This document shows positions 1 to 41,887 of a stretch of 64,000 bases of DNA, piece by piece. Source of the DNA: a bacterium (lineage in GTDB: Bacteria > UBA8248); assembly GCA_965213625.1 (NCBI GenBank), contig CBDBZU010000004.1, forward strand, positions 1,920,001 to 1,984,000, written 5' to 3'. A model generated the notes under the pieces. It saw nothing but the letters and a program-made list of their open reading frames with translations. It searched no databases and had not been told where the DNA came from. Both the position numbers and the translations under genes were made by a program. Numbering within the stretch: the first letter of the stretch is position 1; each line of letters opens with the position of its first letter.

Positions 1-2048
1 ACGCCGCCTGCGTAGATGCTGGTGATCGAGCCCTGAATGGTGCCTACTTCATCGTCGGCGGCATTTTCATCATCAGCCGTTCCAGGTGCGCCGAAGTTAG
101 CGGTAAGCGAAGCATCGCCCTCGAAGTAATCTACGCTGCTTCCTGCTGTGTACACGCCTGTAGCTTTACCATTGTAAGTCGCCGTTCCGGTGAGCGTGAC
201 ATAGTCAGCGAAACTTGCTATCGGCTCACCACCGTCGGCGAAGGCTGCGACACCGGGCGAGTCACCATCGTTGAGCCAGACGCCGAAGGCGAGATAGTCG
301 CTATCCGGAACCGGACCAGTTGCCGCAGTCAACTCAAAATCATCTTCAGTCACATTCACCACATATTTCACCAGCCTCGTCAGCTCCCCGTCTTCAATCT
401 CGAATTGGCAGTCGGTTGGTGTGGTCGAGCCGCATACGAACTCCGCCGGAACGGGATTCGTATCCTCATCGCCGTCATGGTCGTAGGCGGCGCCTGTCAG
501 ATCGGTTGCGCCGTCCGCCAGAACAACCTCAGATTTGGATACGGGCTTGTTGCTTATGGTCAAATCGATGGTTACAGCATCTTTTGCGGCTACCGTCTGC
601 TCGATATCGGTGAAGACAATAGCGTGATTGGAACCATCCGAGATGGAATACCCGTGCATGAAGCCGGACACGCCATCGATCCGGGTGGCCGTCTGCGGCA
701 TGGCCGAGATATTGTTGCCCGGGTCCGCCTCCACGGCCGTCGTCCTGAAGGTCAGCGCAACACCGGTGCTTGGGGTAACGATGATTTCAAATGCGCCGGC
801 CGCGAATTCCACAGGCGGGTCCGCCTGCGTGTCAGGCTCCCAGGAGGCCGTCGCCGTGGCGCCGCCGGAACCACCGGTTGTGGTGCTGTCGTTGTCGGCG
901 TCCGCAGGCGTGCCCGCCGCCGCGCCGATCGCCGCCGCAACGGCCATCACGCGGACAGCCCGGGCGCCTTCATCCGTCGATTCGTCTATGTCCTCGGTAT
1001 CTGGATTATCATCTGCATCTATCGCGGCTTCCACGTCGACGGCGTTCGCCGCCTTGAGCAATCCGAGCACGTGCGCAGCCACCGGGGTCCGGGGGGGCGG
1101 CATGGGGGTAACCGGAGCAGCAACGCCGGTATTTAGTCCGATTCCCATGCCGTTCAGGTTCAACAGGTAGGTCACGAGCGTTTCGTAATGCTCCTTGGCC
1201 TCATCCCGGGCGTCTCGCGCGTCCTCCGCCATCGTGGCGTTCTTCGCTTTGCGGGCCGCAGCTGCCGCGTCGGCCGCCGCTTTCCGTATGATGGGGAGCG
1301 CGGCTTCCGCACGTTTCAGTACCGCTTCCGCCTTTTTCGCTTCTTCCTCCGCCTGCGCGTAATCCAGCCTCGCGGCCTTGGCCCTGTCCGCAGCGTTTCG
1401 CGCCTCTTCGGCTTCCTCGCGGATCAATGCAATCCTGAGGGCCGCCCCGTGTCCGTTTTCTATGACGCTGCCGTCCCTGGGATCGATAATCCTTGTGAAA
1501 CCGTTCGCCAGGGCTCGCGCAGCGAGGTCTTTGTACATATCGGCCGCCTCCTGCGCGGACGCCAGGCTCGTCGCTCCGCCGTACTTGATGACTTCATCCC
1601 GCGCGGCCTCGGCATCTTCCCGGGCTTCTACCGCCATGTCCTTGTATTTCGTGGCGTCATTCAGCGTATCCGCGTCTTGCGCCTTGTCGGCCGCCTCCTG
1701 CGCATTCTCGTACGCGGTCTTGGCCCTGCCCAGCTCAGCCGTGGCCAGGGCGAAATGGATGGGGGCGGCGTCCCGGTCGCCGGCGGCGTTGCTCAGAGTC
1801 TCCTTCGCGGTTTCCAGCGCGGCATTGGCCAGCTTGGCCGCCTCATTGGCGTCGTCTTTCGCATCCATGATCATCTGGGCGATTTCCGCCTCCGTCGGTC
1901 CCGTCATGGGCGGGTCCACCGGATCCGCAGCACCGTCGTCGCCGCCGACTCCGCCGCCTCCGCCGCCGCAGCCCGCCAGCGTCAGCGCGAACACCGCCGC
2001 CAGCGCGAAAGCGGAGAACCTGCTTATGGATTTCGCTCTGAACATCAT
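1..2048 (-). CDS. Surface lipoprotein paralog 1 (TbpB-like/Slam-substrate-like), 3' end runs off the window
   Basis: Read manually; absent from the ORF track because no stop lies in the window. Starts MMFRAKSISRFSAFALAAVFALTLAGCGGGGG after AGGAGG; LAGC lipobox, Ala-rich helical stalk, then ...YLAFGVWL...GTATYNGKATGVY...FEGDASLTANFG as in the other paralogs. Confidence 0.85.
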   Translation of the reverse strand, partial: MMFRAKSISRFSAFALAAVFALTLAGCGGGGGGVGGDDGAADPVDPPMTGPTEAEIAQMIMDAKDDANEAAKLANAALETAKETLSNAAGDRDAAPIHFALATAELGRAKTAYENAQEAADKAQDADTLNDATKYKDMAVEAREDAEAARDEVIKYGGATSLASAQEAADMYKDLAARALANGFTRIIDPRDGSVIENGHGAALRIALIREEAEEARNAADRAKAARLDYAQAEEEAKKAEAVLKRAEAALPIIRKAAADAAAAARKAKNATMAEDARDARDEAKEHYETLVTYLLNLNGMGIGLNTGVAAPVTPMPPPRTPVAAHVLGLLKAANAVDVEAAIDADDNPDTEDIDESTDEGARAVRVMAVAAAIGAAAGTPADADNDSTTTGGSGGATATASWEPDTQADPPVEFAAGAFEIIVTPSTGVALTFRTTAVEADPGNNISAMPQTATRIDGVSGFMHGYSISDGSNHAIVFTDIEQTVAAKDAVTIDLTISNKPVSKSEVVLADGATDLTGAAYDHDGDEDTNPVPAEFVCGSTTPTDCQFEIEDGELTRLVKYVVNVTEDDFELTAATGPVPDSDYLAFGVWLNDGDSPGVAAFADGGEPIASFADYVTLTGTATYNGKATGVYTAGSSVDYFEGDASLTANFGAPGTADDENAADDEVGTIQGSITSIYAGG

Positions 2049-2217
2049 GAAGTGGGTCCTCCTGAATACGATAGAAAAAGGGATTTTCCGTTTCTTCCCG
2101 GCTTTTTAGGTGGAGGACTCTTTTGAAATAGCGTTGAATTCTTGTATCTATTTGATATTTATTTTGTTACAATTGTTTCATGATGGCGTGGATTCTGTGT
2201 ATCAAGGCCCGTAATCA
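2049..2217 (-). repeat. Conserved lipoprotein leader, copy 1 (truncated)
   Basis: Aligns by eye with the proximal half of the leaders at 20870-21236, 22355-22717 and 39115-39465; similarity stops at ~2217. Confidence 0.85.
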
Positions 2218-2257
2218 AAACGAAAGCAGGTTCGTTAAAACGCCTGCGTATCTAGGG

Positions 2258-7714: not shown

Positions 7715-8056
7715 ATGCCCGGAAGAATTGAAAACACGCTGCCGATTCCGGTTCGCCGCGCCCTGAGGAAACTCGGCGAGGAAATCCGCGACGCACGCCG
7801 GCGGCGGCGTATTTCGACGGCGGTGATGGCCGAACGCGCGCTCATCAGCCGGATGTCCTTGTACAAAATCGAAAGGGGCGATCCGGGCGTGTCGCTCGGG
7901 CTCTACGCCTCGGTCCTCTTCGTGCTCGGGATGAACGAGCGGCTCGCCGATCTCGCAGACCCGCGGCACGACCCCGTGGGCTTGAGCCTTCAGGATGCAT
8001 TGCTGCCCAGGCGCATCCGTTCGCCCCGTTCCGGCAAGCCCGGGGGCGGCGCGTAA
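7715..8056 (+). CDS. XRE HTH antitoxin (HipB-like)
   Basis: IRDARRRRRISTAVMAERALISRMSLYKIERGDPGVS; stop/start overlap with hipA. Confidence 0.85.
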   Translation: MPGRIENTLPIPVRRALRKLGEEIRDARRRRRISTAVMAERALISRMSLYKIERGDPGVSLGLYASVLFVLGMNERLADLADPRHDPVGLSLQDALLPRRIRSPRSGKPGGGA

Positions 8057-9312
8057 TGGAGCGGGAGATTCTCGTCCATATCGACCTGCATGGCTCGCCC
8101 GTCCTCGCCGGGCGATTGTGGACCCGCATCCTCCGGGGACGCGAAAGCGCTTCCTTCGAGTACGACGCCGCCTGGCTGGCGCACCCCGAGCGTTTCGCTC
8201 TGGAGCCGGCTCTGACACTTGCGCCCGGCCCATTCCACAAGCCGCCTGAAAGGGCGCTCTTCGGCGCCATCGGAGACTCTGCGCCCGATCGGTGGGGCCG
8301 TATGCTCATGCGGCGCGCGGCGCGCCGGCGCGTCGGACAAGAGGGCCTCTCGCCCCGGACCCTGTTCGAAGCGGATTTCCTGCTACGCGTGGATGATGAG
8401 GCGCGCCAGGGCGCGTTGCGCTTCGCTGAGGATGCTGGCGGGCCGTTCCTCGCCCCGGCCTCCGAACTGCGCATCCCGCCGCTCGTCCGGCTTCCCCGGC
8501 TTCTCTCCGCCGCCGAGAGGTTCACTGAAGATGAAGACGATGACGATGACCTGAAACAGTTGCTGGCACCGGGCTCCTCCCTCGGCGGGGCGAGACCGAA
8601 GGCATCCGTTCGCGACCACGATGGACACCTGGCCCTCGCCAAGTTTCCCCACAGAGGGGACGACGTCGACATCGTCCTCTGGGAGGCCGTTGTCCTGGCG
8701 CTAGCCGCCAGGGCGGGTATCCCCGTTCCCGATTGGCGAATCGAGACGATCAATGGAAAGGCGGTGCTCCTCACCCGCCGGTTCGACCGAGAAGCCGGGC
8801 GGCGCATCCCGTTCCTCTCGGCCATGAGCATGCTGGGCGCAAACGACCGCGAGACGCGCTCCTATCTGGAGATCGCCGATGCCCTCCGCCGCTACGGGGC
8901 GGCGGCGAAAGAGGACCTTGCGCAGCTTTGGCGGCGCATCGTGTTCAACGTGCTTGTTTCGAACACGGACGACCATCTGCGGAACCATGGATTCCTGTAC
9001 GCGGGTCAAGGCGGCTGGCGCCTTTCTCCTGCCTATGACCTGAATCCCGTTCCCATCGATCTGGGCCCGCGCCTGCTCTCTACGGCCATCGATCTCGACG
9101 ACCCGGCGGCCTCGATCGAAGCGGCTCTGGGCACGGCCGAATATTATGGCCTCCGGACGGTGGAGGCGTCGTCCGTTGCAGGGCAAGTGGCGCGTTCCGT
9201 ATCGGGTTGGCGCAAAGAGGCGACAGGCCTCGGGATTCGTGCCCGCGAGATCGAACGCATGTCCTCGGCTTTTGAGCACGCGGATCTGGGATTTGCCCTC
9301 AAACTCACATGA
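8056..9312 (+). CDS. hipA: HipA-family kinase toxin
   Basis: DSAPDRWGR, GSSLGGARPKAS, NTDDHLRNHGF and LSPAYDLNP motifs. Confidence 0.92.
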   Translation: MEREILVHIDLHGSPVLAGRLWTRILRGRESASFEYDAAWLAHPERFALEPALTLAPGPFHKPPERALFGAIGDSAPDRWGRMLMRRAARRRVGQEGLSPRTLFEADFLLRVDDEARQGALRFAEDAGGPFLAPASELRIPPLVRLPRLLSAAERFTEDEDDDDDLKQLLAPGSSLGGARPKASVRDHDGHLALAKFPHRGDDVDIVLWEAVVLALAARAGIPVPDWRIETINGKAVLLTRRFDREAGRRIPFLSAMSMLGANDRETRSYLEIADALRRYGAAAKEDLAQLWRRIVFNVLVSNTDDHLRNHGFLYAGQGGWRLSPAYDLNPVPIDLGPRLLSTAIDLDDPAASIEAALGTAEYYGLRTVEASSVAGQVARSVSGWRKEATGLGIRAREIERMSSAFEHADLGFALKLT

Positions 9313-11216: not shown

Positions 11217-13661
11217 TCACGTGGCGGTTGCGACACCGGGCCGCTCGACCGTGTAGCCGAGGCTCTCGTAGCCCTTGACGCGCTTACCGCACATACGCCT
11301 GAGCGCCGGCACGGCGTCGTCGAGATAATCATAGACCAGCACTTCGCGCTTCTCCGGATGGAGCCTGTGCAGGCGGCCGACGTACTGGGCCAGCGTCCCC
11401 TTCCACGACACGGGCATAGCCAGAAACAGCGTGTCGAGACGGGCATCGTCGAATCCCTCTCCGATATAGCGGCCGGTCGCGACGAGTACCCGTTCCTCTC
11501 CGTCGGGAATATCTTCCAGGCGCTTCATGATCTCGCGGCGCCCTCTCGTCCCCATGCCACCTCTGAAAAGCAGGACGTTTCGCGCGAAGCGCCGGAGCCT
11601 CCAGGCAAGTTCGCCGGCGTGGTCCTTGCGCTCTGTGAGAACGAGGGGGGAGCGTCGCGCCTCAAGCGCCGCCAGCACGTCATCGATGATCAGTGCGTTG
11701 CGCTCTTCGTCACCTGCCAGCGCGGAATATACCTCCTGGATCGGCGGGCGTTCGGATTGAACGCCCGCTGGCAGCCGGAACTGCGTCGGACGCAGGATTG
11801 CCCGGTGCCGGAAAGGGTGGCGTCGCGCCTCCGCCTTCGCACTTGCCCGGTAGCGGATCGGACCGCACTGCATGAAGACGATCGGGTGATGCCCGTCCTT
11901 GCGCGTGAGGGTCGCCGAGAGCCCGAGCAAATACCTCGCCCTGGCGCGCCGTGCCACCGCTTCGAAGCTGACCGCCGAGAGGTGATGGCACTCGTCAATC
12001 ACGAGATGACCGTAGTCGGAGACGAGATCGTCCACTACGCTTTTGCGCTTCAGACTCTGGAGCATGGCGACGTCGACGATACCGCCAGGCTTGCGGACGC
12101 CGCCCCCGATTCGGCCGATGGCGGACGCGGGAAGATCGAGAAAAACCCCGAGCCGCGCGATCCATTGCTCCATCAGCTGACGCCGATGAACGAGGACGAG
12201 CGTGTTCACGCCGCGCGCGGCTATCATCGATGCCGCCACGACAGTCTTGCCGAACCCGGTCGCCGCCGAGAGCACGCCGGTCTCATGCGCGAGCAGGGAA
12301 TCAGCGGCTGATCTCTGCTCCCGGGTCAATTCGCCGAGAAATGCCGCATCGACGGGGTGGCCGGGACTTCGCTCATCACACAGTGCCAGACCGACCCCGA
12401 GTTCTTCGAGCAGTTGCCGGGTCGCCTCGAGACAGCCGCGCGGAAGCGCAACGTGGTGGGAGAGGAGCTCCGCACAGGCGATGACGCGCGGGGTGCCAAA
12501 AGTCGAACGCCGCATCGCCTGCGCCCGGTAGAACTCGGGGTTCTGGAACGCCGCCAAGCGAATGAGCCGGTTGACCAGGCCCGTGGGCAGACCGGCGCGC
12601 GGGATATAGAGCTGGTCCGCCAGGACGGCCTCGATCCGCTCCGGCAGCGTGCCTGCGATCGGAAGCGCGGGCCTTCGCCTCGAGGGCGATGCGCTCCAGG
12701 GCTCCTCGTCCTCCTCCTCGAGCGGCAGGCGCAGACCGACGACCCGGCCCCCCTCGCCGGCCGCCTCAACGATTGCCGTGGCTTCCACAGGCGTCAAGCG
12801 GCGGAGCGAGGAGAGGAACGCCCATTGGTCCTGATATGGCGTAAAATCCTCGCCCAGGAACACGCTGTTGCCGCGCTTTCTGGGACCGCCCTGTAAGGGC
12901 AGCGCAATGAGGTTCCCGAAACCGCCCTCGGGCAGGGTGTCCTGGCTGGGGAAAAGCCGGTCGTAGGACTCGAACCCGATCTCGGGATTGTTCTCCATCG
13001 CTTGGGTCAAGAGATATGAACCCAGCCGGCGGGCCAGTGGCGCGGGCACGGGTTCGGTGAAGAATATCCAGACGTGCCCGCCGTTTCCTGAACGCGAGCG
13101 CTCCAGCGCCGCCGGTACCCGCTTCGACCGGCAGGCGGCGAGGAACGCGCCCGCATCGCTCCGCCAAGTCGCCTTGTCGAAATCGATGGCCAGAAACTTG
13201 CATTTGCCATCCGTCAACATGGGGTAGACGCCGAGCGTCTCGCGGCCGCGCAGGTGAGAATCGATCGCCTCGTCCGTAACGAGGCGAAAGGCCTGGTTCG
13301 GACAGGCGCCGCACCTCACCTTTGGCTTCTCGCACAGGCGTGGCTTCCATTCGTTGTCGCATACCGGCGCGTAGCCGGCTTTTCGGGTGCGGGCGTTCTC
13401 CCAGCGTTTGGGGTAGACGTCGTCGCGACCGCGAAAGAGCGAGCGAAAAAACGCTATTTTCTCTGATGCCGGGGAGCGATCGTTCACGGCAGGCCCGCCT
13501 GGGCGAATGTCCCTCCCGGCTGTCGCCCCGGCATCGAACTCCGCCAGGCGCGCCTCGAGGGCCTCCCGTTCGGTCGCGAGAAGCGCGAGACGCTCGCGAA
13601 TCCGAGCAGCTTCTTCGACCTCGCCGGCTTCGGGAGTCAAAGGGGTCTCTGTATTATGCAT
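11217..13661 (-). CDS. AEP primase-like domain fused to an SF2 (ResIII/DEAD-type) helicase, TOTE-type
   Basis: 814 aa. N-terminus: LFRGRDDVY, AIDFD, ERSRSGNGGHVW, GNLIALPLQ. Helicase: ATGFGKT, IDECHH, LSAT, GEGFD, QYVGRLHR. Confidence 0.85.
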   Translation of the reverse strand: MHNTETPLTPEAGEVEEAARIRERLALLATEREALEARLAEFDAGATAGRDIRPGGPAVNDRSPASEKIAFFRSLFRGRDDVYPKRWENARTRKAGYAPVCDNEWKPRLCEKPKVRCGACPNQAFRLVTDEAIDSHLRGRETLGVYPMLTDGKCKFLAIDFDKATWRSDAGAFLAACRSKRVPAALERSRSGNGGHVWIFFTEPVPAPLARRLGSYLLTQAMENNPEIGFESYDRLFPSQDTLPEGGFGNLIALPLQGGPRKRGNSVFLGEDFTPYQDQWAFLSSLRRLTPVEATAIVEAAGEGGRVVGLRLPLEEEDEEPWSASPSRRRPALPIAGTLPERIEAVLADQLYIPRAGLPTGLVNRLIRLAAFQNPEFYRAQAMRRSTFGTPRVIACAELLSHHVALPRGCLEATRQLLEELGVGLALCDERSPGHPVDAAFLGELTREQRSAADSLLAHETGVLSAATGFGKTVVAASMIAARGVNTLVLVHRRQLMEQWIARLGVFLDLPASAIGRIGGGVRKPGGIVDVAMLQSLKRKSVVDDLVSDYGHLVIDECHHLSAVSFEAVARRARARYLLGLSATLTRKDGHHPIVFMQCGPIRYRASAKAEARRHPFRHRAILRPTQFRLPAGVQSERPPIQEVYSALAGDEERNALIIDDVLAALEARRSPLVLTERKDHAGELAWRLRRFARNVLLFRGGMGTRGRREIMKRLEDIPDGEERVLVATGRYIGEGFDDARLDTLFLAMPVSWKGTLAQYVGRLHRLHPEKREVLVYDYLDDAVPALRRMCGKRVKGYESLGYTVERPGVATAT

Positions 13662-24769: not shown

Positions 24770-24834
24770 TAGCGAAGAGCAACGACGCCTCAGGCCTTCG
24801 GGGCTTAACGGCCCCGGGGCCCAAGGCGAATGGA

Positions 24835-26623: not shown

Positions 26624-26753
26624 GCTGTGATGCTTACCCGCGGTAAACAACGGCGCGAGACTTCAGGCGCTTCAGACAATCGACAGACGGGCGCTTGCTT
26701 GCCTGCCCACGACATGATAACAAATTGCTATCGGATATTTGGAGGAGATGGCG

Positions 26754-27439: not shown

Positions 27440-27704
27440 CGAAATATTTCAGGTAACCCTAAAGGGGTGTCCTGTCCGGACGAAAAGAACTTCAAGGGAC
27501 GAGCTTATGATTCCAAGCGGGAAGCCCCTTACCCGGTCGTTTGACATCGACCCGTTCACAGATTCAAATCCGCCTCCATGAGAGATAGAGGAGTGGTCTA
27601 GCGGTCGGACATCCAGGCGTTTCCAGAAGACACAAGACCGGGGCAATCTGGAATTACGGTCGTGGAGGTGCCCGATCGAGTGAGCGGGAACCTTGCGAAC
27701 GTGG

Positions 27705-29035
27705 CGTCGCCGACGAGTACGAGCTTGGGTATGCGCAGGGCGCCCGCGCTCCGGAGCAGGTCGCGGGCCTGGACGGTGGAGGCCAGCGATCCCTCATCAA
27801 CCACCAGCACGGTCTTGGCGAAGGCCGCGTGCATCTTTCTGGCGGCCCCTTTCGTGAGGCGGCCCTGGGCGACGCTGGCGTTGCGCGCCAGGAACCGCTG
27901 CAGGGTCTCGCTCTCAATCCCCGATTCCGCCTCCAGCCTGCGCACCACGGACGCCGAGGGGGCGAGGCCCGCTACGCGCCAGCCCTTCTTCCCCGCAATC
28001 GTTCGCGAGCGATCGAGCATCCGCGTCTTGCCCGCGCCGGCGTAGCCCTGCACGCCAACGGTCCGGTCCTTTTCTGTAAGGATGAGTTTCACCGCCCGCT
28101 TCTGCTCGGCCGTGAGCGGCCCCTTGCGCAGCTACCGGTCCACCATCCAGCCGCGCATCGCCGCACCACCCCGGCCCGAGCTCGCACGCATGAACGCGAT
28201 CGTCTCGCGCTACCGGGTGGCGGCCACATCTGTGGTGAGCCCGTCGCCTCCCTTGAGCGCAGGCGCATCGTGAACGCGGCCCTCGCGCGTGTGGTCCCCG
28301 ACGACCCGCTCGATGGCCCCGATGGACACGGAGCCGGGGCCGTGGGCGAGTGCTGCGGCGAGAATATCCGTCCTCGCGAACACCGCATAACGCTCCGAGA
28401 GATGGGCGAGCGCCCACTCGACGGCCTCCTTCGCGGGGTCCGTCCCGGGCGAAATATCCCCGCCCGCTTCCCGCGCCCACTCTTTCTTCAGGCCATGTAA
28501 CGCCCGTTGGCGGCCGATGCGACGAACGCTTTCGATTCGAGGCCGAGTTCCGACGCCTGTTTTTCCCAGATCCCGCGCAGCGCCTCCCTGTCGACCTCGC
28601 GCTTGTGCTCGCGGGTCATCAGGGCCGCCCGCCGGGCGAGGTGCTGGTTCTCCGCCGTGGCGCCGTGGCCCCGGCCCTCCATCGCCGCCTCGATCTCGGC
28701 GCGGCGCGAGGAGAACGCCTCGATGGTTTCGCGCGAGACGCCACCGATCTCGAACCGCCCGTCGGCGTGGGTCTTCTCGATGTCTCGTGCCGGAACGTGG
28801 CGATCACGGCCTTCTGGCCGCCGGCCCGGACCATGCGTCCGCTCGCCTGGTCCCGCATCCTGGTCTCGGCGGCGTTTCGCTCGAACTCCCCGAGCGCCTG
28901 GGTGACGGCGCGATCGTGGGCGGCTACGATGCGCGCATCCCCGCCGATGAGCGCGACCAGGGATACGGATTTGGGTGCGGAGAAGGTGAGGTCGCGCCCG
29001 GGCCGGTGGTGAATCTCTCCCTCCCGGGTCCTGCG
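27705..29035 (-). pseudogene. Degraded second copy of the MOBF relaxase-helicase
   Basis: Segments match 42672-45614 (HHRPGRDLTFSAPKSVS; GVQGYAGAGKT; VVDEGSL) with frameshifts and deletions; fused to trailer copy 4 at ~29036. Confidence 0.9.
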
Positions 29036-29261
29036 GCTTGAAAGATGTCCACATAAGAAAGGGACTACCCTCCCTCTCTATCCCGGGTTGTTCCTGGAGA
29101 GGGGGGCAGTCCCTTTTTCTCTTGGTGCATAAAGAAGAACAGGGGTTGCTCGTTGTTCCCGTTCCCGGATCGAGGACTCAAACTCATAGCCAGGAGCGGT
29201 ACAGTTTACCCATCACGAGAGAGGCAACCAACGGGCAACCCCCTATTCGTTCTCCTTCATT
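29036..29261 (-). repeat. Conserved lipoprotein trailer, copy 4 (truncated; junction element at 29142-29242)
   Basis: Matches the first ~230 bp of the other trailers. Confidence 0.9.
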
Positions 29262-29298
29262 CGCCTTTGGCGATGGGGCAAGCCCATCGCCAAAGGCG
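29262..29298 (-). terminator. Perfect 16-bp hairpin just after the paralog 4 stop
   Basis: CGCCTTTGGCGATGGG-5 nt-CCCATCGCCAAAGGCG. No U-tract, so a terminator role is uncertain. Confidence 0.45.
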
Positions 29299-29312
29299 TC
29301 TTGCTCCGCTGA

Positions 29313-31064
29313 CTAATCCTTTAACCGCGCGCCGAACGCGCCGGTAGCGCTTCCGTTGACGAAAGTGGTGTTGAACTCGCCAACCAATACTTCAGGAGCA
29401 TCTGCAGGAGCTCTACCATTAGGAGCGTGGAATTGCCCGGTCAGGGAACGGGAACCCTCATTCCCCTTCATGCCGGAAGCTACTCCATTTTCTAGCACAA
29501 ATTCACTTGTGATGCCTGCTGTAATACCTACATTCCAGTTATGGCTTTCGCCATGCTCCAATTGAAAATTGGAAATACTACCGTGGATCGAGTTTTCTTT
29601 CCGGGTTGTGCTTCCATCGAAGGCAACATTCAGAGACACGTCCGCAGTGAACCTGCCGGATGTTTTAACAGCTACAGTTGAATCCGGATTTAACGTGTTG
29701 TGAACGTAAACTCCCGCGGCCCCCCCGGAATATTCCGCCGTTCCAGTAACTTCATCCAATGTTCCGGCTGCATCTGGAAGTGAAGAGAAAGCAAAAGTTT
29801 GAACGGTGTCGTAAGATGAGACAGCCCCATCTTTTGTCGTTGTTTCCAACCAGAAGCCGTAGTGCATATAGTCCTTATCCGCAACATCAACCATGGCTCC
29901 GGAATCTGGAGTGAACGTCCATGTTCCCGTCATAGCTGTTGCCTTACCTTTATCGTTAATTGTTACTACACAATCGGCATCGGTACACAGATATGTGCCC
30001 ATCGCACCATCGAAGCTGCCTCTGTGCATACCCTCATTTACAGCTGGAGTTGTACCATCGTCATTATCGAATTCTTTCCTTGTTGTGGCGCCTTCGTCAG
30101 GTATCGTTAAACCCAGGTCCACATGCGCCAAATGGTCGGTAGTGTTTACTTGAAGTGCTCTGAAATCATCTGCAGTGGTGTCCGTGTCGTTGTTTGCATC
30201 CAACCTATAGACCTTGGAAAACGCGGTCGGTTTGGGAGCCTCAATATCCGTGTGAACGACGATAATCTCCCTGCTGCTTCCGATATCTCGTGTAAGCATC
30301 TGACCATCGCCGAACCTGGCAACGCTGGAGAATTTCGGGTCGCCTTTGGCAAGGTTCTGCTCGTCAAGGACACCAACAGTTGCCATTGTCCCATCGTGCT
30401 TTACTGTAAGCCTATAATTGGTGGTAGCATCTGCATTAGGTTCAGCTTCATCTCCTATATCGGTGTCACCATCGAATGGCCGATCTTGTCCAGTACCGGA
30501 ATTTGCTTCTGCTGCGATAGCATCTTCCTTTGTTCCTGCGACCTTGTTGGCAGCCGCTTGCGCCGCCGCCGCCGCTGCCGCCGCATCGTCATCCGCCTTG
30601 GCCTGATTCACCATGCCGGCATACGCCACAGCGTCATCCCTGGCGGCTTCCGCATCCGCCTGAGCAGCTTCTGCCGCTCCTGACGTGGTGGCGGCCTGGG
30701 CAGCGCTGTTCGCCGCCTCCGCCGCACCGAGAGCCCGCAGAGCGGCGTCGTAGGAATCAGAGTCGGAATCACGATTCGCCGCCGCTGCGTTCACAGCCGC
30801 CATAGCCGCATTGTAAGCAGCCTGCGCTGCTGCTTGTGCATCTGTCAGTTTCATGGCTTCCAGTTCCGCAGCCGTGGTGCATGTGTTGTCCGCATTCCAG
30901 CGGCCGCCCGCATCCACGCATTCCATCTGCGGATCAGGCATCGGGGGCGGCTCTTCAACGGCAGCAGTCCCGCCGCCGCCGCCGCAGCCGGCCAGCGTCA
31001 GCGCGAACACCGCCGCCAGGGCAAAAGCGTAAAGCTTGCTTATCGATTTCTCTCTGAACTTCAT
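29313..31064 (-). CDS. Surface lipoprotein paralog 4 (TbpB-like C-terminal barrel)
   Basis: 583 aa; first ~174 aa nearly identical to paralog 5; YMHYGFWL, AEYSGGAAGVY; C-terminal GEFNTTFVNGSATGAFGA. Confidence 0.88.
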   Translation of the reverse strand: MKFREKSISKLYAFALAAVFALTLAGCGGGGGTAAVEEPPPMPDPQMECVDAGGRWNADNTCTTAAELEAMKLTDAQAAAQAAYNAAMAAVNAAAANRDSDSDSYDAALRALGAAEAANSAAQAATTSGAAEAAQADAEAARDDAVAYAGMVNQAKADDDAAAAAAAAQAAANKVAGTKEDAIAAEANSGTGQDRPFDGDTDIGDEAEPNADATTNYRLTVKHDGTMATVGVLDEQNLAKGDPKFSSVARFGDGQMLTRDIGSSREIIVVHTDIEAPKPTAFSKVYRLDANNDTDTTADDFRALQVNTTDHLAHVDLGLTIPDEGATTRKEFDNDDGTTPAVNEGMHRGSFDGAMGTYLCTDADCVVTINDKGKATAMTGTWTFTPDSGAMVDVADKDYMHYGFWLETTTKDGAVSSYDTVQTFAFSSLPDAAGTLDEVTGTAEYSGGAAGVYVHNTLNPDSTVAVKTSGRFTADVSLNVAFDGSTTRKENSIHGSISNFQLEHGESHNWNVGITAGITSEFVLENGVASGMKGNEGSRSLTGQFHAPNGRAPADAPEVLVGEFNTTFVNGSATGAFGARLKD

Positions 31065-31120
31065 TTAGTGAGTCCTCCTGAATACATAGAAAAAGGGATT
31101 TTCAGCGAATTTCCGACTTT
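31065..31120 (-). repeat. Conserved lipoprotein leader, copy 4 (proximal ~55 bp only)
   Basis: Identity to the other leaders ends after AAAGTCGGAAATTCGCTG. Confidence 0.85.
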
Positions 31121-31515
31121 CTGTAAATTCTCACATCCTCCTTTCTTATCATTGAAATCCATTATCTAACCCTGGGTCATTGTCTTCCAATTAATGGAGG
31201 GCGGATACTACCGGGCACGCCATCCGGACTTCATGGGACACGATTCCTGATTCAAAAAAAATTGTTTGGTCCATTAAGCTTCATTATCTTGAACCCGTCT
31301 CCTTTTTCAGGCGACGACCACTCCGTTCGAGAACCCTTCCATTGAACCAGCACAACCTCAATACCGACATGCGTTCGGGGTCGGCTACAACGTTTGCCAC
31401 GAGGCCCGAACTACCAATGTAGGCCCCCGCCTGTTCCGATCCTCATGAGAGGACCATATCCTACCCAGCGAGCATCCCCGAGTCAATCGTGCCTCTTGAT
31501 TTCTTCTGCTACATT

Positions 31516-33456: not shown

Positions 33457-34511
33457 ATGACCCGTAACGAGACGGAAGAATCGATGATGGCGACTGGATA
33501 TACCGGCGAGGCCTGGAACACGAAGGAATTCTTTGAGTGCGCTGGCGCGGCGGATACTCTACGCCGCCTGCAGGACGGAGCCGATGTCAACGCGCGGGAT
33601 GAGAGAGGATGGACGCCTCTTCACAGGGCGGCGGCGTTCGGCAAGACGCCCGGGGTCGTGACCGCCTTGGTCGAAGCCGGGTCCAATCCGAATGCGCGGG
33701 ATGAAGACGGAGCAACTCCCCTGCACGCAGCGGCGCTTGGCGCGACTCCCGGTGTCGTAACGGCTCTGGTTCAGGCCGGGGCCGATCCGAACGCAGGAGA
33801 AAAAACCGGATGGACCCCGCTGCACGCGGTGGCGGCGCGAAGCGCGAGCCCCGGAGTCGTGACGGCCCTGGTGCGGAGCGGGGCCGACCCGGACGCCCGG
33901 TCCATCAAGGGAGAGACGCCCCTGCACGAAGCTGCCGCCAGCTGCAGGACTCCCGGCGTCGTGCTCGCGCTGCTTCGGTCCGGCGCCGACGCGCGCGCAC
34001 GGAATCGGGAGGGAATGACGCCTCTGCACCGCACCGCTGGCTCCGGCGCGATCCCCGGCGTCGTGACGGTTCTGGCGCAGGCGGGCGCCGACGTGAACGA
34101 TTGCTTTGACGGAGTGACCCCCTGCACTGGGCGGCGGCGAACGGCGAAACCCCCGAGATGGCGAAGGCTCTCGTCCGGGCGGGCGCCGACCCAAACGCGC
34201 GCACCGGAGAGGGCGTGACTCCCCTGCGCTCTACGGCGGGCTCCGGCGCAACCCCCCGGATCGTAACGCTCCTCATCGACGCCGGGGCCGAGCCGAACGC
34301 CCGGGACCGGAAAGGGCGCACGCCCCTGCACGTGGCGGCGTGTTTCGGCAAGGCCGTCCCTGCCGTCGCGCAGGCCCTGCTTGCCGCCGGCGCCGAGCCG
34401 GCGACAAGGGAGGAGAACGAGGAAACGCTCCGGGATATCGTAAGGATTCTCCGCACAGGGGAACGGACGTTTTCCGGCGCTTTAAGGATGAACGGCGTCC
34501 ATAGCCGATAG
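33457..34511 (+). pseudogene. Ankyrin-repeat protein, frameshifted at a C5 run (34118-34122)
   Basis: Repeated GADPNAR..G.TPLH.AA units across ORFs 33457-34218 and 34158-34511. Confidence 0.85.
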
Positions 34512-36036: not shown

Positions 36037-36846
36037 ATGTGCATGATAATGAATTCCCGTCGGCTAAACACCAAAGATTATATCAGAAACCTTCTCGCTG
36101 GCGGGCGCCATCACTTTACTTCAAGCGACGCTCGCGAGGCGCTCGGCGTATCAGCAGCAGCCGCCAAACTCGCTCTTTACCGGCTGTCCAGGCAAAACAT
36201 AATCGCCCAGCCCGCTAGAGGCTTCTACGTAATCGTTCCTCCGGAATACCTCTCTCTGGAGTGTCTGCCGGCGGACCAGTTTATCCCGGCGCTGATGGAG
36301 CACCTGGGGCAAACCTACTATTCAGGTTTGCTTTCAGCCGCGCAATACCACGGCGCGGCCCATCACCGGCCCCAGGAATTCCAGGTGCTGCTCGACAAGG
36401 CCCGTCGGCCGATCCGCTGCGGCCGGGTGCGCGTGGTCTTCATCGTCCGCAAGCATCTTCGGAACGTACCCGTACAAACCTTCAACACGCCCCGGGGCAC
36501 GATTCGGGTGTCGACGCCGGAAGCGACGGCCGTCGATCTCGTCGGCTATTATCACCATACAGGTGGACTCGACCAGGTGGCGACCGTTCTCTCAGAACTC
36601 GCAGGGCAGATCGACCCAGAGAAACTGGTGACGGCCGCGCAGACCGCGCCGATCACCTGGGCGCAAAGACTTGGATACCTGCTCACGTTCGTCAATGCCC
36701 GCGAACGGGTCGTCCCTCTGAAGGATTATGTCAGGAGAGAAGCCCGGCGAACGGTTCCGCTTCTCCCCGGCGCATCAAGCGAAGAAGCGCCTCGCGATGC
36801 GGACTGGAAGCTCCTCGTAAACACGGACGTGGAACCGGACCTGTGA
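36037..36846 (+). CDS. abiEi: Type IV TA antitoxin AbiEi
   Basis: RGFYVIVPPEY, YYSGLLSAAQYHGAAH, VSTPEATAVDLV and QRLGYLL motifs. Confidence 0.85.
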   Translation: MCMIMNSRRLNTKDYIRNLLAGGRHHFTSSDAREALGVSAAAAKLALYRLSRQNIIAQPARGFYVIVPPEYLSLECLPADQFIPALMEHLGQTYYSGLLSAAQYHGAAHHRPQEFQVLLDKARRPIRCGRVRVVFIVRKHLRNVPVQTFNTPRGTIRVSTPEATAVDLVGYYHHTGGLDQVATVLSELAGQIDPEKLVTAAQTAPITWAQRLGYLLTFVNARERVVPLKDYVRREARRTVPLLPGASSEEAPRDADWKLLVNTDVEPDL

Positions 36847-37682
36847 TCCCGCGCGACTATATCACCGAGTGGCGGGCGCAGGCGCCATGGGTGCAGGATT
36901 TCCAGGTCGAGCAAGACCTCGTCATCAGCCGGGCTTTGATAGCGATTTTTACTCACCCGACCCTGGGAGAAGCGCTGGCCTTCCGGGGAGGTACGGCGCT
37001 CTACAAACTCCACATTCATCCCCCGGCCCGCTATTCGGAGGACATCGACCTCGTACAGGTCAGGACCGAGCCGGCCGGGCCGATGATGGGAGCGGTTCGG
37101 GAAGCCCTCGATCCATGGCTCGGGAAACCGCAATACAAACAGACCAAAGGACGCGTGACATTCAATTACCGCTTTCAGTCCGAGGATGCGCCGCCCCTTC
37201 CGCTGCGGCTGAAAGTGGAAATCAATTCACGGGAACACTTTGCGGTCTACGGATTCACCCGGCTGCCCCTTACCGTGTCTTCGCGCTGGTTCGAGGGCAG
37301 TTGCGCGATCACCACGTATACGCTCAAGGAGTTGCTGGCCACCAAGCTGCGCGCCCTCTACCAGCGTCGTAAAGGCCGGGATCTTTTCGATCTTGCGGTC
37401 GCGCTCGAAACAGGGACTCTCGACCCGGATCGGGTCGTCGCCGCGTTTGTGAAGTATATGGAGCGAGACGGCCACGACGTGACGAGAGCCCGGTTTGAGC
37501 AGAACCTCCAGGCGAAACTGCGCGACCCGCGGTTCAACGCCGATATCGGCCCGCTTCTGGCGACCGGATTTTCCTGGGACGCCGATCAAGCTGCGGCAAT
37601 CGTCCGCTCCAGGCTGATTGCGCGATTGCCGGGTGAGCCGTGGCAGGGCGGCAAAGATAGCAAGGGAAACGCGGAGGGGTAA
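36843..37682 (+). CDS. abiEii: Type IV TA toxin AbiEii nucleotidyltransferase
   Basis: GTGA overlap; QVEQDLVISRAL, FRGGTALYK, RYSEDIDL, KVEIN and KGRDLFDL motifs. Confidence 0.9.
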   Translation: MIPRDYITEWRAQAPWVQDFQVEQDLVISRALIAIFTHPTLGEALAFRGGTALYKLHIHPPARYSEDIDLVQVRTEPAGPMMGAVREALDPWLGKPQYKQTKGRVTFNYRFQSEDAPPLPLRLKVEINSREHFAVYGFTRLPLTVSSRWFEGSCAITTYTLKELLATKLRALYQRRKGRDLFDLAVALETGTLDPDRVVAAFVKYMERDGHDVTRARFEQNLQAKLRDPRFNADIGPLLATGFSWDADQAAAIVRSRLIARLPGEPWQGGKDSKGNAEG

Positions 37683-38790: not shown

Positions 38791-39114
38791 GACATCTCCA
38801 ACAGCCGCACCAGCCGGGCGCCCAACCCGACGGGCAACGCCGCGATTTCGTCATCGACTCCAGATACGGTCTCGACCGTCCATTCTACATCTTCCATTTA
38901 TAGCACATATCCGCTATAATATCTCAATCCGGAGCAGAACGCTGCTTGCGGAGTTCCACGCCACAAGAACATGGAGTACTTCCCCATCGCCTCGAAATTG
39001 GAACGACCTCCGGAGAAACAAGTGCGACGGAAATTCTGCCGTATCGGGCAAGAACCGAATCTACATCGAAAAGGGTTCCCGAAAAACCCATGACCCCGGT
39101 CCGTTTTTTTCCGG

Positions 39115-39465
39115 GGCCATTCAAGTCGGCGGAAGATTGGGTCGCCCGGGGCGCATGAGCGCCACTCAAGATTGATTTTTTCTCGTAAAAATAATCTGCA
39201 TCCGGTCGGCGGTGAGACCCGCTTCGTCGCGGCCCGCCGGCAGACACCGGCGCGACGGGGTGCGCAGAACTTGTAATGAATCCGCTATCTTTATGATTAC
39301 GGGCCTTGAAACACAGAATCCACGCCATCTTGAAACAATAATAATAGGATATATATCAATTAGTTATAAGAATTCAACGCTATTCCAAATGAGTCCTCGA
39401 TCTAAAAAGTCGGAAAGAAATTCACTGAAAATCCCTTTTTCTATGTATTCAGGAGGACTCACTAA
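39115..39465 (+). repeat. Conserved lipoprotein leader, copy 5
   Basis: Aligns with 22355-22717. Confidence 0.9.
39354..39366 (+). promoter_or_regulatory. IHF-consensus site in the leader
   Basis: TATCAATTAGTTA fits WATCAANNNNTTR, with an upstream AT tract; one-mismatch versions in leaders 1-3. Confidence 0.45.
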
Positions 39466-41220
39466 ATGAAGTTCAGAGAGAAATCGATAAGCAAGCTTTA
39501 CGCTTTTGCCCTGGCGGCGGTCTTCGCGCTGACGCTGGCTGGCTGCGGCGGCGGCGGCGGAACTGCTGCCGTTGAAGAGCCGCCCCCGATGCCTGATCCG
39601 CAGATGGAATGCGTGGATGCGGGCGGCCGCTGGAATGCGGACAACACATGCACCACGGCTGCGCAACTGGAAGCCATGAAACTGACAGATGCACAAGCAG
39701 CAGCGCAGGCTGCTTACAATGCGGCAAAAGCTGCGGTTGACGCAGCGGAGGCGAATCGCGATTCCGACCCTGATTCCTACGATGCCGCTCAGCGGGCTCT
39801 CGGTGCGGCGGAGGCGGCGAACAGCGCTGCCCAGGCCGCCACCATGTCAGGAGCGGCAGAAGCTGCTCAGGCGGATGCGGAAGACGCCAGGGATAACGCT
39901 GTGGCGTATGCCGGCATGGTGAATCAGGCCAAGGCGGATGACGATGCGGTGGCGGCGGCTGCGGCGGCGCAAGCGGCGCATAACAAGATGGTGGAGACGA
40001 AAATAAAAGCCATTTCGAGTGAGGCCGGCTCTGCGGTTCGAGCTGCTGGTCAGCCGTTTGACGACAACGATGAGGGTGATGATAATGACAACTATGCCGT
40101 CAAAATTTCGCACAAGGACGGCTCGGTGTCGATTGAAATAGATGACCCCGAAATGCCTGCGAAAAACGATCCCCAATTCACAATGTCGGACGGCAAATAC
40201 GTTCGCGACAACGGCGGCGGGGTAACGGAAATCATCAGCGTCATGACCGATATCGATGCGCCCGTGGATACGCCGTTCGGCAAGGAGCATAAACTCACGC
40301 TTGGCGATGCCGACGAGGATAGGACTGGCGATCAATTTACCACTTATGCTGTCAAAGATACGGACAATGGCAAAGTTGCGTCGTCTGAATTTCCGTCAAC
40401 ACCGAACACAGAGAGAAGATTTGACGTTAACGAAGACGGTACAGATAAAAACGAAGGCCAGTTCAGAGGCACCTTCGACGGCGCCTCGGGAACGTTTGAG
40501 TGCGTTGCCAGTAGTGGAAATTGTGATGTTACGACAGACGCCAAGGGTAAGTTAGAGGCGTTGACTCCTGGTGACTGGGAGTTCACACCGGACGCCGGCG
40601 AAACGGTCTCAGTCGCGGATAACGACTTCATGCACTATGGCTTCTGGATCAAGAAATCCACCAAGGACGGGGTGACCACTTATGACGAGGTGCAGACCTT
40701 CGCCGGTCATAGTAAGCCTAGGACCACGAATTACGCCCAAGTCGTAGACGGTTCCGCCAAGTACGAAGGCGGCGCACACGGGGTATACACGTACAATACC
40801 TTCAACGCCGACTCTTCTGTTGACGCCAGATCTGCCGGAACGTTCACGGCGGACGTTGCCCTTACGGCGTACTTCGGCGCGCAAAGTTCCGTGGCAGCGG
40901 ATAAGCACAATAAATTGGAAGGCACCGTGTCGAATTTTGAACTATCCGGTGGCGAACCCAACAAATGGGAACTCACATTGAGATCATCGGCAGAAGCCAA
41001 TATTTCAAATTCTGCCAGATTTACTGACGGCGTAGCGTCAGTAAAGGGACAGGCAGATGCCGCATCATGGTCCGCCTCATTCCATGGCGATGGAGCAGCC
41101 GTGGATGGCAATAATACGGGAACTGTAGCGCCGCCCCCGGCTGTGGTGGGTGAGTTCAACGGTAACTTTGCCAACGGAAGCGTGGCCGGCGCATACGGCG
41201 CAACCTACCAGAAGGACTAG
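39466..41220 (+). CDS. Surface lipoprotein paralog 5 (TbpB-like C-terminal barrel)
   Basis: 584 aa; LAGC lipobox; FMHYGFWI, AKYEGGAHGVY, GTFTADVALTAYFG; C-terminal GEFNGNFANGSVAGAYGA. Confidence 0.88.
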   Translation: MKFREKSISKLYAFALAAVFALTLAGCGGGGGTAAVEEPPPMPDPQMECVDAGGRWNADNTCTTAAQLEAMKLTDAQAAAQAAYNAAKAAVDAAEANRDSDPDSYDAAQRALGAAEAANSAAQAATMSGAAEAAQADAEDARDNAVAYAGMVNQAKADDDAVAAAAAAQAAHNKMVETKIKAISSEAGSAVRAAGQPFDDNDEGDDNDNYAVKISHKDGSVSIEIDDPEMPAKNDPQFTMSDGKYVRDNGGGVTEIISVMTDIDAPVDTPFGKEHKLTLGDADEDRTGDQFTTYAVKDTDNGKVASSEFPSTPNTERRFDVNEDGTDKNEGQFRGTFDGASGTFECVASSGNCDVTTDAKGKLEALTPGDWEFTPDAGETVSVADNDFMHYGFWIKKSTKDGVTTYDEVQTFAGHSKPRTTNYAQVVDGSAKYEGGAHGVYTYNTFNADSSVDARSAGTFTADVALTAYFGAQSSVAADKHNKLEGTVSNFELSGGEPNKWELTLRSSAEANISNSARFTDGVASVKGQADAASWSASFHGDGAAVDGNNTGTVAPPPAVVGEFNGNFANGSVAGAYGATYQKD

Positions 41221-41280
41221 TAATAAAGCAGGACACCTTGAGTCTCCGGGGCTTCACGGCCCCGGGGCCGGGGCGAGTTG

Positions 41281-41887
41281 TGAAGGAGAACGAATAGGGG
41301 GGTTGCTCGTTGGTTGCTCTCTCGTGATGGGTAAACTGTACCGCTCCTGGCTATGAGTTTGAGTCCTCGAGCCGGGAACGGGAACAACGAGCAACCCCTG
41401 TTCTTCTTCATGCACCAAGAGAAAAAGGGACTGCCCCCCTCTCCAGGAACAACCCGGGATAGAGAGGGCGGGCGGTCCCTTTCTTATGTGGACATCTTTC
41501 AAGCTATTCGGTGTAGATGCAGGAGTTTTCCGCTCTCGCTTCCGTTCTCCCGTGCCACGTATGTCTTTTCTTATTTGTGTCTGTCTGTCGCAAGAACACC
41601 AGAAAACCCCTGGCGGGTTTTCGCATCCCCCATCTCAAGGGAGCATATCATCGCACCATTTGATCCATGTCTTCGAAGCCTACCTCATGAATCGATTAAT
41701 TTGACTTTAGGAATTTACTGATTCATGTTCCCGCCAGCGCGGAGATGAAGCGGGGAAGCCTGAGGATGTATTCACTGGGAAACCACCTAACCTAGCGCGG
41801 AAAGAGTCTGCTTTCGCCGGGAGGCGACGGCGCATCCTGCGTTCCCGCCCCCTAGGTATCCGGTTCCGGCGGAAGACGCATGCCTTG
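41281..41887 (+). repeat. Conserved lipoprotein trailer, copy 5
   Basis: Full-length copy with the junction element (41299-41398) and a long hairpin (~41424-41482). Confidence 0.9.
41299..41398 (+). ncRNA. Candidate three-way-junction structured RNA (also 18832-18931, 24847-24946, 29142-29242, 6749-6855)
   Basis: Closing stem GGGGTTGCTCGTTG/CAACGAGCAACCCC with two internal stems and an invariant loop TTTGAGTC. Confidence 0.6.

Follow-up and report, generated by a model that had tools for sequence, protein, structure and literature searches.

A divergent lipoprotein gene family in a conserved leader and 3′-element frame, with exchanged alleles, on a candidate mobilisable island

The window analysed here, a stretch of 64,000 nucleotides (nt) of contig CBDBZU010000004.1 (positions 1,920,001 to 1,984,000, assembly GCA_965213625.1) from a bacterium of the lineage UBA8248, contains five paralogous open reading frames (ORFs), c1 to c5. 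As read from the sequence, all five encode an identical type of signal peptide, with the lipobox LAGC followed by a run of five glycines (Gly5). Each is a full-length ORF with its own ribosome-binding site, ATG start, and signal peptide. The genes lie in a variable island of about 61 kb that extends from window position −1810, where the conserved left flank ends, to about 59450, where the right flank starts; negative positions denote the genome to the left of the window. G000 is the source genome, and other G numbers are relatives in the same genus. c1 exceeds the window: in the genome it encodes 785 amino acids (aa), with its 3′ end at window position −309. The genes and the elements that bracket them, including a structured 3′ element (hp1) and a second hairpin (hp2), are as follows.

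1-2048 (ORF 3-2048), minus strand: c1, predicted surface-lipoprotein paralog; the family profile matches its N- and C-terminal parts
2049-2248, minus strand: c1 leader, about 200 nt in common with the other leaders at 83-85% identity
6727-6875, plus strand: orphan hp1 (101.7 bits; 77-79% identical to the other copies), with no barrel-type ORF upstream
18509-18958, minus strand: c2 trailer, with hp1 at 18813-18953 and hp2, a hairpin, at about 18726-18816
18947-20869, minus strand: c2, predicted surface-lipoprotein paralog, 640 aa
20870-21237, minus strand: c2 leader; 467 nt match the c3 leader region at 89% identity and extend ~95 nt into the coding sequence
22352-22717, plus strand: c3 leader, from blastn between loci
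22718-24769, plus strand: c3, predicted surface-lipoprotein paralog, 683 aa
24770-25471, plus strand: c3 trailer, with hp1 at 24827-24966 and hp2 at about 24984-25072, then relaxase-upstream backbone
29036-29312, minus strand: c4 trailer, truncated, with hp1 at 29122-29263 and hp2 at 29036-29125
29313-31064, minus strand: c4, predicted surface-lipoprotein paralog, 583 aa; first ~170 residues near-identical to those of c5
31065-31123, minus strand: c4 leader, core part only
39112-39465, plus strand: c5 leader, island-specific from 39112 to 39416, genus-wide core from 39417
39466-41220, plus strand: c5, predicted surface-lipoprotein paralog, 584 aa
41277-41418, plus strand: c5 hp1, structured 3′ element (covariance-model score, 143.9 bits)
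41415-41505, plus strand: c5 hp2, a G+C-rich hairpin with a T-rich run behind it, resembling a terminator on inspection
41506-41907, plus strand: c5 distal trailer, the upstream region of the relaxase operon

The flanks of the five genes were compared by blastn. The leaders of c2, c3, and c5 share about 355 nt of upstream sequence and about 100 nt of coding sequence at 81 to 89% identity. The trailers of c3 and c5 are common over about 700 nt, and that of c2 is common over about 450 nt. An earlier interpretation made from the letters of the window, without database searches (the sequence-only reading), had described a shared leader of up to ~350 bp with ribosome-binding site and signal peptide and the same long trailer after the four complete genes. 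The signal peptide is present in all five, but the common leader is reduced to ~200 nt in c1 and ~60 nt in c4. The long trailer follows c2, c3, and c5, but that of c4 is cut at 29036, leaving about 275 nt; a sixth, orphan copy exists, and the trailer is absent from c1, as checked in the genome beyond the window end. Nor is the trailer one unit, being a composite of hp1, a terminator-like hairpin, and the upstream region of the relaxase operon. At c2, the 5′ edge of hp1 overlaps the gene and includes its stop codon.

In 100-nt windows, the flanks showed 85 to 100% identity and the coding interiors 22 to 55%. Fourfold-degenerate third positions at conserved residues agreed at 23 to 45% of interior sites in nine of the ten gene pairs, with 28% expected by chance from base composition. 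This near-chance agreement indicates that the coding interiors are saturated while the noncoding flanks are nearly identical. The tenth pair, c4/c5, reached 55% agreement, due only to its common 5′ third: identity is 92 to 99% over the first ~500 nt of coding sequence, and the proteins are 54 to 56% identical overall. The proposal that the flanks are more conserved than the proteins was borne out, flank identity being far above synonymous-site identity, and the interiors are as divergent as had been described, with the 5′ third of c4/c5 as the exception.

The distribution of this frame was established from a DNA search of 40 relatives together with hp1-specific BLAST and covariance-model searches; comparisons within the genus cover 23 genomes, G000 and 22 others. 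A leader core (window 39417-39570, about −50 to +100 relative to the ATG) and hp1 recur many times in 16 of the 22 other genomes, typically 1.7 to 3.8 kb apart. The core frame consists of about 150 nt at the 5′ end (5′ untranslated region [UTR], signal peptide, and Gly5) and the ~130-nt hp1, and it is genus-wide and relaxase independent. Among 22 distinct leader cores, mean column conservation was 91% from −50 to −1, 92% at signal-peptide codon positions 1 and 2, and 81% at codon position 3, falling to 59% directly after the glycine run. The value of 81% places the synonymous sites of the signal peptide far above the saturated level of the rest of the gene. The second layer of the frame is narrower in its distribution. 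Outside the source genome, the outer leader (39112-39416) and the distal trailer (41506-41907) were found only in G020, with the distal trailer partly present also in G022 and G018. Since the latter two genomes have the distal trailer without hp1 or a lipoprotein beside it, this segment belongs to the region preceding the relaxase operon. The core frame lies directly upstream of a relaxase in G000 and G020 only. The sequence-only reading had treated the flanks as a property of a MOBF element, a view at odds with a core frame found around members of the lipoprotein family at numerous loci of 16 of the 22 other genomes.

Two explanations for conserved flanks around saturated genes differ in whether recombination took part. 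Under selection only, functional flanks would have been conserved while the coding sequences diverged since old duplications under diversifying selection. Purifying selection on the flanks is expected anyway, given the conserved structure and invariant loops of hp1 and the ribosome-binding site and signal peptide held by the leader core. The conservation of 81% at signal-peptide third codon positions speaks against selection alone, as does the homogenisation of hp1 within genomes: mean hp1 identity was 93.5% for 36 same-genome pairs versus 88.6% for 492 pairs between genomes. Across all 528 locus pairs, hp1 identity showed no correlation with protein identity over the 150 C-terminal residues encoded beside it (r = −0.01), and 37 of the 53 pairs with hp1 identity of at least 95% had protein identity below 40%. 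The genes closest to c3 (78 to 79% over the C-terminal part) carry hp1 copies 85 to 86% identical to that of c3, and the c3 hp1 is 98% identical to that of c2, with 30% identity between the genes.

Comparison of c4 with c5 and of c2 with c3 is equally difficult to reconcile with divergence alone. Residues 1 to 170 of c4 and c5 are identical at 160 of 170 positions, with agreement at 77 of 86 fourfold sites; over the remainder, the counts are 171 of 393 residues and 17 of 78 fourfold sites. c4/c5 is a mosaic that switches near codon 170, and the abrupt fall at fourfold sites from 90% to 22% lies inside the gene. c2 and c3 form the two arms of an inverted duplication whose backbone remains 87 to 89% identical for more than 1 kb past the trailers, a nonfunctional stretch, while the genes are saturated and the proteins are ~32% identical.

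The chromosomal slot occupied by the island gave a view of alleles at orthologous positions. The slot flanks lie 58 to 205 nt apart (empty) in G019, G015, G007, and G001; the same slot holds 6 to 10 kb with one lipoprotein cassette in G013, G002, G008, and G022, and 1.3 to 1.8 kb with an orphan hp1 in G004 and G006. The four resident alleles are 24 to 30% identical over their last 300 residues (one pair, 71%), and their hp1 copies are 85 to 98% identical. In G008 versus G022, hp1 is 98% identical and the genes are 24% identical, a combination of unrelated alleles at one slot that also counts against selection only. Upstream of the orthologous trwC relaxase gene, G020 has a two-gene cassette where G000 has c5. 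The sequence-only reading had named allele exchange at orthologous slots as a check on its proposal, and the slots bear it out between species: unrelated alleles, near-identical hp1. The alleles have been exchanged, most likely by ordinary homologous recombination, for which a RecA route would be expected; conservation by selection without recombination is, in our view, rather unlikely.

Next, the nature of hp1 was examined. The 300 nt after the c5 stop codon (41221-41520) fold far better than shuffled sequences (z = −7.2). RNAalifold analysis of 38 hp1 copies from 17 genomes yielded a branched interior enclosed by a 15-pair stem; over the 37 pairs of the structure, 97.6% of 1,399 cells were paired. 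Compensatory changes on both sides were found at 11 of the 37 pairs, versus 3.6 ± 1.3 in shuffled alignments (0 of 500 shuffles reached 11), and slid controls were far lower. On the sense strand there were 159 G-U cells and 11 A-C cells, the latter corresponding to G-U pairs of the opposite strand. This asymmetry points to a structure in the sense transcript, that is, in the 3′ UTR, and not to a double-stranded DNA site, so that from its sequence hp1 is more probably a 3′-UTR RNA than a DNA recombination site. Such an element might act in stability, termination, or regulation. Sequence identity among copies is 72 to 100%, loops included. The copies on the island are followed by hp2, the second G+C-rich hairpin, whose T-rich tail makes it look like a transcription terminator.

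The hp1 model matched 17 of 51 genomes of the class, all of the same genus, with more than 100 matches across those 17, and none of 28 genomes from 14 other genera of the class. Among the 38 aligned copies, 33 lie 16 to 138 nt (typically 60 to 95 nt) past a gene ending in the last-strand motif of a barrel; the remaining five comprise two that follow family genes missed by the strict pattern and three orphans. In a search of species genomes, an exact 40-nt hp1 pattern was found in 7 assemblies, at 19 stretches in all (record labels, unverified: two "Nitrospinota bacterium" and five "bacterium"). Rfam 15 gave no match in the window at the gathering score and only sub-threshold hairpin-type matches in 41100-42100. 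Two candidate identities for hp1 were rejected: that of a small ORF by indels of 1 to 2 nt between copies, and that of an island attachment site by the lack of a copy at the island ends.

Divergent hp1-like elements, one to three in tandem and spaced about 185 nt apart, also occur at a locus conserved across many genomes of the genus. In the source genome this locus lies at G000:C4:790905-791232 (stretch L067, 2406-2733, minus strand), about 600 nt upstream of a 349-aa family lipoprotein, and in G006 it lies at 1651-2161 of stretch L068; Rfam 15 gave no match in either stretch at an E value of ≤0.01. The locus may encode an independent small RNA or be a form of hp1 that regulates from the 5′ side.

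The position and form of hp1 also bear on whether the cargo is moved by a dedicated, programmed cassette system. Such a system could be of the integron or shufflon type, with a site-specific recombinase that acts at hp1 or at the leader, or could feed silent cassettes into an expression site, as for pilE/pilS of Neisseria and vlsE of Borrelia. In integrons, the attC site is an imperfect palindrome 3′ of the cargo that is conserved in structure and not in sequence, and an IntI-type integrase lies beside the array. Here, too, the same 5′ and 3′ elements bracket each cargo, whether one gene or two; hp1, like attC, is an imperfectly palindromic sequence that directly follows the cargo; and two tyrosine integrases are encoded on the island. 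However, those integrases (55009-57502) are the only ones, lie ~14 kb from the nearest cassette, and sit near the island end, as expected for the integration of the island itself; no integron integrase adjoins the cassettes. The cassettes have their own translation signals, and hp1 is conserved in sequence, loops included, with a sense-strand excess of G-U cells, as expected of an RNA and not of a site in double-stranded DNA. Many hp1 copies occur at single loci with no recombinase beside them in the stretches read, in which no scan for recombinase families was made.

In the pilE/pilS and vlsE systems, gene conversion operates between one expression site and truncated silent donor cassettes. 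The likeness is that conserved segments flank variable ones and recombination moves the variable part; the difference is that neither a single expression site nor silent cassettes are seen here, all five genes being complete and equipped with their own ribosome-binding site, start, and signal peptide. Recombination breakpoints vary, as in the switch of c4/c5 near codon 170, and the leaders are not bracketed by conserved inverted repeats: the five leader regions contained only short inverted repeats (11 to 13 nt) and two imperfect pairs (21 and 27 nt; 74 to 76%), none of them common between copies; minority orientations are beyond what the short-read contigs of the sample can show. No dedicated recombinase, silent cassette, or invertible promoter was found, and a programmed system appears very unlikely. 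The suggestion that the flanks serve as homology arms or recombination sites for swapping cargo survives in part: recombination has separated flanks from cargo, but hp1 does not resemble a DNA site.

One further feature of hp1 is retained as a lead only. Within an invariant loop (41345-41365), 9 nt form a perfect complement to the conserved Shine-Dalgarno region (39445-39460, c5), as matched by 24 of 1,000 shuffles; the complement was noticed post hoc, in a segment with no sequence variation from which covariation could be read. The energy of the whole hp1-leader duplex was no better than that of shuffles (640 of 1,000 and 494 of 1,000 were as good), and the same Shine-Dalgarno stretch is conserved also in two paralogs for which no hp1 was seen. 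We regard as a long shot the idea that hp1 is a new 3′-UTR regulatory RNA acting with the shared leader, whereby transcripts of one paralog, or 3′-UTR fragments released from them, would set the translation of others in a posttranscriptional layer atop allele exchange, and both modules would provide portable homology arms for mobilised DNA at a resident locus. If true, landing by homology arms would explain the growth of the slot from ~0.2 kb to 61 kb here and up to ~175 kb in G020 (a size that is unverified).

The encoded proteins were compared with known families. c1 to c5 matched no TbpB or fHbp model in Pfam at an E value of ≤0.1 and nothing else relevant there; in NCBIfam, only sub-threshold "invert_tail" matches over the signal-peptide region were obtained. 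A phmmer search of PDB sequences with c5 gave no match at an E value of ≤10. In a large protein collection, 256 relatives were found at an E value of ≤0.001 among 8,000 scored candidates; none of the 120 relatives listed has a precomputed Pfam domain, and their only product name is "hypothetical protein" (labels of metagenome-assembled genomes: Nitrospinae/Nitrospinota or Defluviicoccus). Of six such homologs checked for a taxon, two were named. An AlphaFold2 model of c5 was built on a 42-sequence alignment (mean pLDDT, 84; pTM, 0.71), and c1 to c4 were placed by homology to c5 and the family profile. The model predicts lipobox Cys27, Gly5, a disordered tether, a three-helix bundle (residues 45 to 188), a beta handle or beta-rich region, and an eight-stranded barrel (residues 429 to 581). 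A Foldseek search of the PDB with this model gave 20 matches at an E value of ≤0.001 out of at least 500 at an E value of ≤10, and those listed were chains of HpuA, TbpB, NHBA, and fHbp. VIA-align placed the NHBA C-domain at Z 14.2 (146 of 146 residues aligned; root mean square deviation, 2.8), the TbpB C-lobe at Z 13.2 (191 residues aligned), and fHbp at Z 12.8 to 13.4. A similarity of the helical bundle to a trypanosome surface protein (Z 13.8) was given no weight, its score being within the range for which the tool warns about helical folds. The sequence-only reading had recognised motifs of a TbpB-like barrel, and the c5 model agrees, with a predicted handle and eight-stranded barrel of the TbpB/fHbp/NHBA type.

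A lipobox, a beta-rich handle, a C-terminal eight-stranded barrel, and a Slam in the genome are the features that Hooda et al. (2017; PMC5449769) give for Slam-dependent lipoproteins, and by predicted fold, lipobox, and genome content the present family fits that structural description. The window itself contains no Slam gene, as had been noted from the sequence, and the genome search found one only, elsewhere: PF04575 (Slam/DUF560) has a single match in the source genome (C4:1466180-1467049; 94.2 bits versus a cut-off of 22; positions 1 to 288 of 288). This gene (stretch L070, 3162-4553) begins 205 nt past the end of a further paralog (L070, 1197-2957). The five window genes lie ~455 to 495 kb from it, so that adjacency to Slam applies to the L070 paralog and not to them. 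Such adjacency holds for about half of known Slams. Slam was present in 22 of the 23 genomes of the genus, mostly in one copy and repeatedly beside a family member, and the family profile matched 19 of the 23, with up to 31 matches per genome, a number of matches and not of gene copies. The proteins c1 to c5 would receive a lipid anchor, after which the one Slam of the genome would deliver them to the cell surface.

Further paralogs in the source genome include a two-gene cassette at about 3369.8 to 3373.4 kb of C4, a member at about 321 kb, and the small member of 349 aa at about 789 to 790 kb. In the two-gene cassettes of stretches L026 (5504-9201, minus strand) and L069 (1328-4901, minus strand), the family leader is on the first gene and hp1 follows the second gene only; in L026 the second gene has a different signal peptide. 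In the library searched, no paper linked Nitrospinota with TbpB, and, judged from the titles and abstracts listed, none dealt with such a lipoprotein family in sponge symbionts.

We then considered the element on which the five genes reside. All five cassettes sit in one hypervariable chromosomal slot, which was also examined in G011; in G020 the slot may reach about 175 kb, if its record is circular. The other features of the island are as follows.

7715-9312: helix-turn-helix and HipA genes (toxin-antitoxin/defence)
11217-13661: TOTE-type AEP primase-helicase fusion (defence)
17194-18199, minus strand: backbone on the downstream side of c2; its counterpart beyond c3, at 25686-26635, is 87.6% identical
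21546-21709, minus strand: orf206 fragment between the c2 and c3 leaders, 83.5% identical to 42370-42533
27011-27439: PIN toxin gene
27598-29054, minus strand: decayed trwC, with TrwC and AAA_30 pieces and internal stops, 88% identical to 42889-44398 and fused to the truncated c4 trailer
36037-37682: AbiEi/AbiEii genes
42052-45614, plus strand: orf206, which has no Pfam family, and an intact gene for the MOBF relaxase-helicase TrwC (980 aa)
46458-47045: AbiV-like HEPN gene
48178-49524: YspA SLOG gene beside DUF4326
55009-57502, minus strand: pair of tyrosine integrase genes in tandem, close to the right island end, ~64% identical in DNA and overlapping by ~45 nt

A Pfam scan of 30 window ORFs returned helix-turn-helix, HipA, TOTE-type primase-helicase, solute-binding protein, PIN toxin, ankyrin-repeat protein, AbiEi, AbiEii, AbiV HEPN, YspA-type SLOG, DUF4326, SSB, integrase, and TrwC matches, with no mating-pore genes among them; no tRNA genes were found in the window. 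TrwC (42672-45614) matched PF08751 (275.6 bits), AAA_30 (145.5 bits), and UvrD_C_2. c5 directly precedes the intact orf206-trwC pair. The distal trailer between them contains a 16-nt inverted repeat (41686-41727), a candidate origin of transfer (oriT) to judge from its sequence, and a promoter-like site (41943-41971) lies just beyond, before orf206. A sigma-70 scan gave one site before orf206 and no consensus promoter in the c5 leader. In at least five modules of G020, an extended leader is followed by one or two lipoprotein genes, hp1, and hp2; the distal trailer is present in four of the five, orf206 follows in three, and TrwC is intact in one and truncated in one. Close TrwC orthologs (86 to 90%) were found in six other genomes.

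The TrwC module, with relaxase, AAA_30, and UvrD_C_2 domains, together with tyrosine integrases, SSB, and the lack of mating-pore genes in the ORFs scanned, resembles integrative mobilisable elements of the MOBF (TrwC) type; it differs in that a lipoprotein cassette lies directly upstream of the relaxase operon and that this module is repeated within one island. The island is best described as an integrative, mobilisable defence island, which TrwC would mobilise with a helper.

Several side observations were made on the island and its surroundings. The genus is rich in TrwC-type relaxases (as many as 10 matches in one genome), and the orthologous TrwC-type copies at G000:C4:4076082-4078937 and G020:C1:2362336-2365191 each contain one in-frame TAG. 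REP-like palindromic repeat clusters flank the island on both sides (61193-62477 and window −892 to −423), and similar units are scattered in the source and related genomes. An ankyrin-repeat protein (33457-34218, plus strand) has at least four repeats, with internal repeats in its DNA; ankyrin-repeat proteins are unusual in bacteria outside host-associated lineages.

The sequence-only reading had also suggested that the lipoproteins might set the specificity of entry or surface exclusion for the MOBF element. c5 is directly upstream of orf206-trwC, c4 is upstream of the decayed trwC, and similar linkage occurs in G020. However, most family members and hp1 copies in the genus were not seen beside a relaxase, and the close TrwC orthologs in G022 and G018 are accompanied by the distal trailer, beside which neither hp1 nor a lipoprotein was matched. 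The proteins, at 580 to 785 aa, have a TbpB-type ligand-binding architecture as predicted, and the ORFs scanned include no mating-pore genes. The suggestion thus finds no support in these data, and we consider an exclusion role extremely improbable.

The arrangement could also have arisen as an artefact, with alleles of coexisting strains strung into one contig. The source genome appears to be metagenome assembled (completeness, 96.6%; contamination, 5.2%), and the sample contains related strains, as seen from many variant contigs and from low-depth alternative joints. On the other hand, the copies are separated by unique genes and occur in both orientations, and independent short-read contigs from four runs of one sample, which are short, agree without differences with the assembly over unique parts of c2, c3, and c4. 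The single-contig genome G020 has at least five modules of this kind, and multicopy families are found in 19 of 23 genomes; an assembly artefact is highly improbable. The low-depth joints in the short-read contigs of the sample (17921/25300, on opposite strands; 23762/30962; and 22484/25906), which have short sides, may reflect repeat artefacts or else related strains in which the same signal peptide precedes a different cargo.

Taken together, these results probably describe a multigene family of Slam-type lipoproteins in a conserved frame for expression and export, both ends of which double as homology arms, with the long flanks on the island representing duplicated element backbone. The 5′ module and hp1 would be kept by selection for expression and export, and they have been homogenised within genomes. 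Because both modules bracket every gene, they would act as ready-made homology arms, and homologous recombination or gene conversion would swap the mature-protein part at one locus, between loci, and on mobile-element DNA. The unit duplicated on the island would comprise the lipoprotein gene, hp1, the terminator, the relaxase-upstream region, orf206, and trwC, of which intact, truncated, and rearranged copies would have accumulated. The likely outcome is a repertoire of surface variants that differ in ligand or antigen specificity, from which a selective benefit may follow.

Several points weigh against this interpretation. Exchange is documented historically, between species and paralogs, and not as an ongoing process within a population. 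The hp1 structure was derived on the sense strand, which somewhat favours the G-U result, and cotranscription of hp1 with its gene is deduced solely from position, strand, and the G-U asymmetry. Placement of the family depends on one predicted structure and on homology among the paralogs, with no Pfam or PDB sequence match, and surface display and Slam dependence of the five proteins, none of which adjoins Slam, are presumed. The long-range order of the repeats depends on what appears to be a metagenome-type assembly, and none of the short-read contigs covers a whole cassette.

In mode of working, the closest system appears by analogy to be the Erp family of Borrelia burgdorferi on cp32 prophages. 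Erp (OspE/F-related) genes, with their "upstream homology box," are described as occupying an allelic site of the cp32 prophage and having a common promoter, leader, and first mature residues, diverse ORF remainders, and frequent past recombination (PMC10016077). Both systems would thus have variable surface lipoproteins at an allelic place of multicopy mobile elements, a constant 5′ part, and recombining remainders. They differ in fold and export, which are unrelated; in the element, a prophage plasmid for Erp versus an integrated relaxase island here; in the conserved structured 3′ element, which the portions of that paper drawn on here do not describe for Erp; and in that most family members here lie outside mobile elements.

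With the cargo of Slam, or type 11 secretion (TbpB, LbpB, HpuA, fHbp, NHBA, and hemophilin), the family shares the lipobox, the predicted handle, and the eight-stranded barrel, and DUF560/Slam adjoins one paralog. It differs in having no Pfam or PDB sequence match and an extra N-terminal three-helix bundle, and in combining up to ~30 profile matches per genome with usually one Slam, and a 5′ module and 3′ RNA element per gene. Type 11 secretion is described as proteobacterial in the accounts drawn on here (PMC8406197 and PMC12282271), whereas the assemblies with hp1 are labelled "Nitrospinota bacterium" or "bacterium" (unverified labels).

Slam cargo has been studied mostly in animal pathogens, with few genes per genome, each usually beside its translocon. 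Here, in uncultured bacteria, one translocon appears to serve up to ~30 profile matches per genome, with every gene in the same 5′ and 3′ frame and with alleles exchanged, partly on mobilisable islands. The family would offer a natural system for the study of Slam cargo recognition, in which the barrels are constant and all else varies. hp1 is a candidate new structured RNA family, with its >100 model matches in 17 genomes of the genus, and is directly testable as such. In these bacteria, the surface repertoire would diversify without a dedicated switch, the signals for expression and export staying constant while the exposed part of the protein is exchanged.

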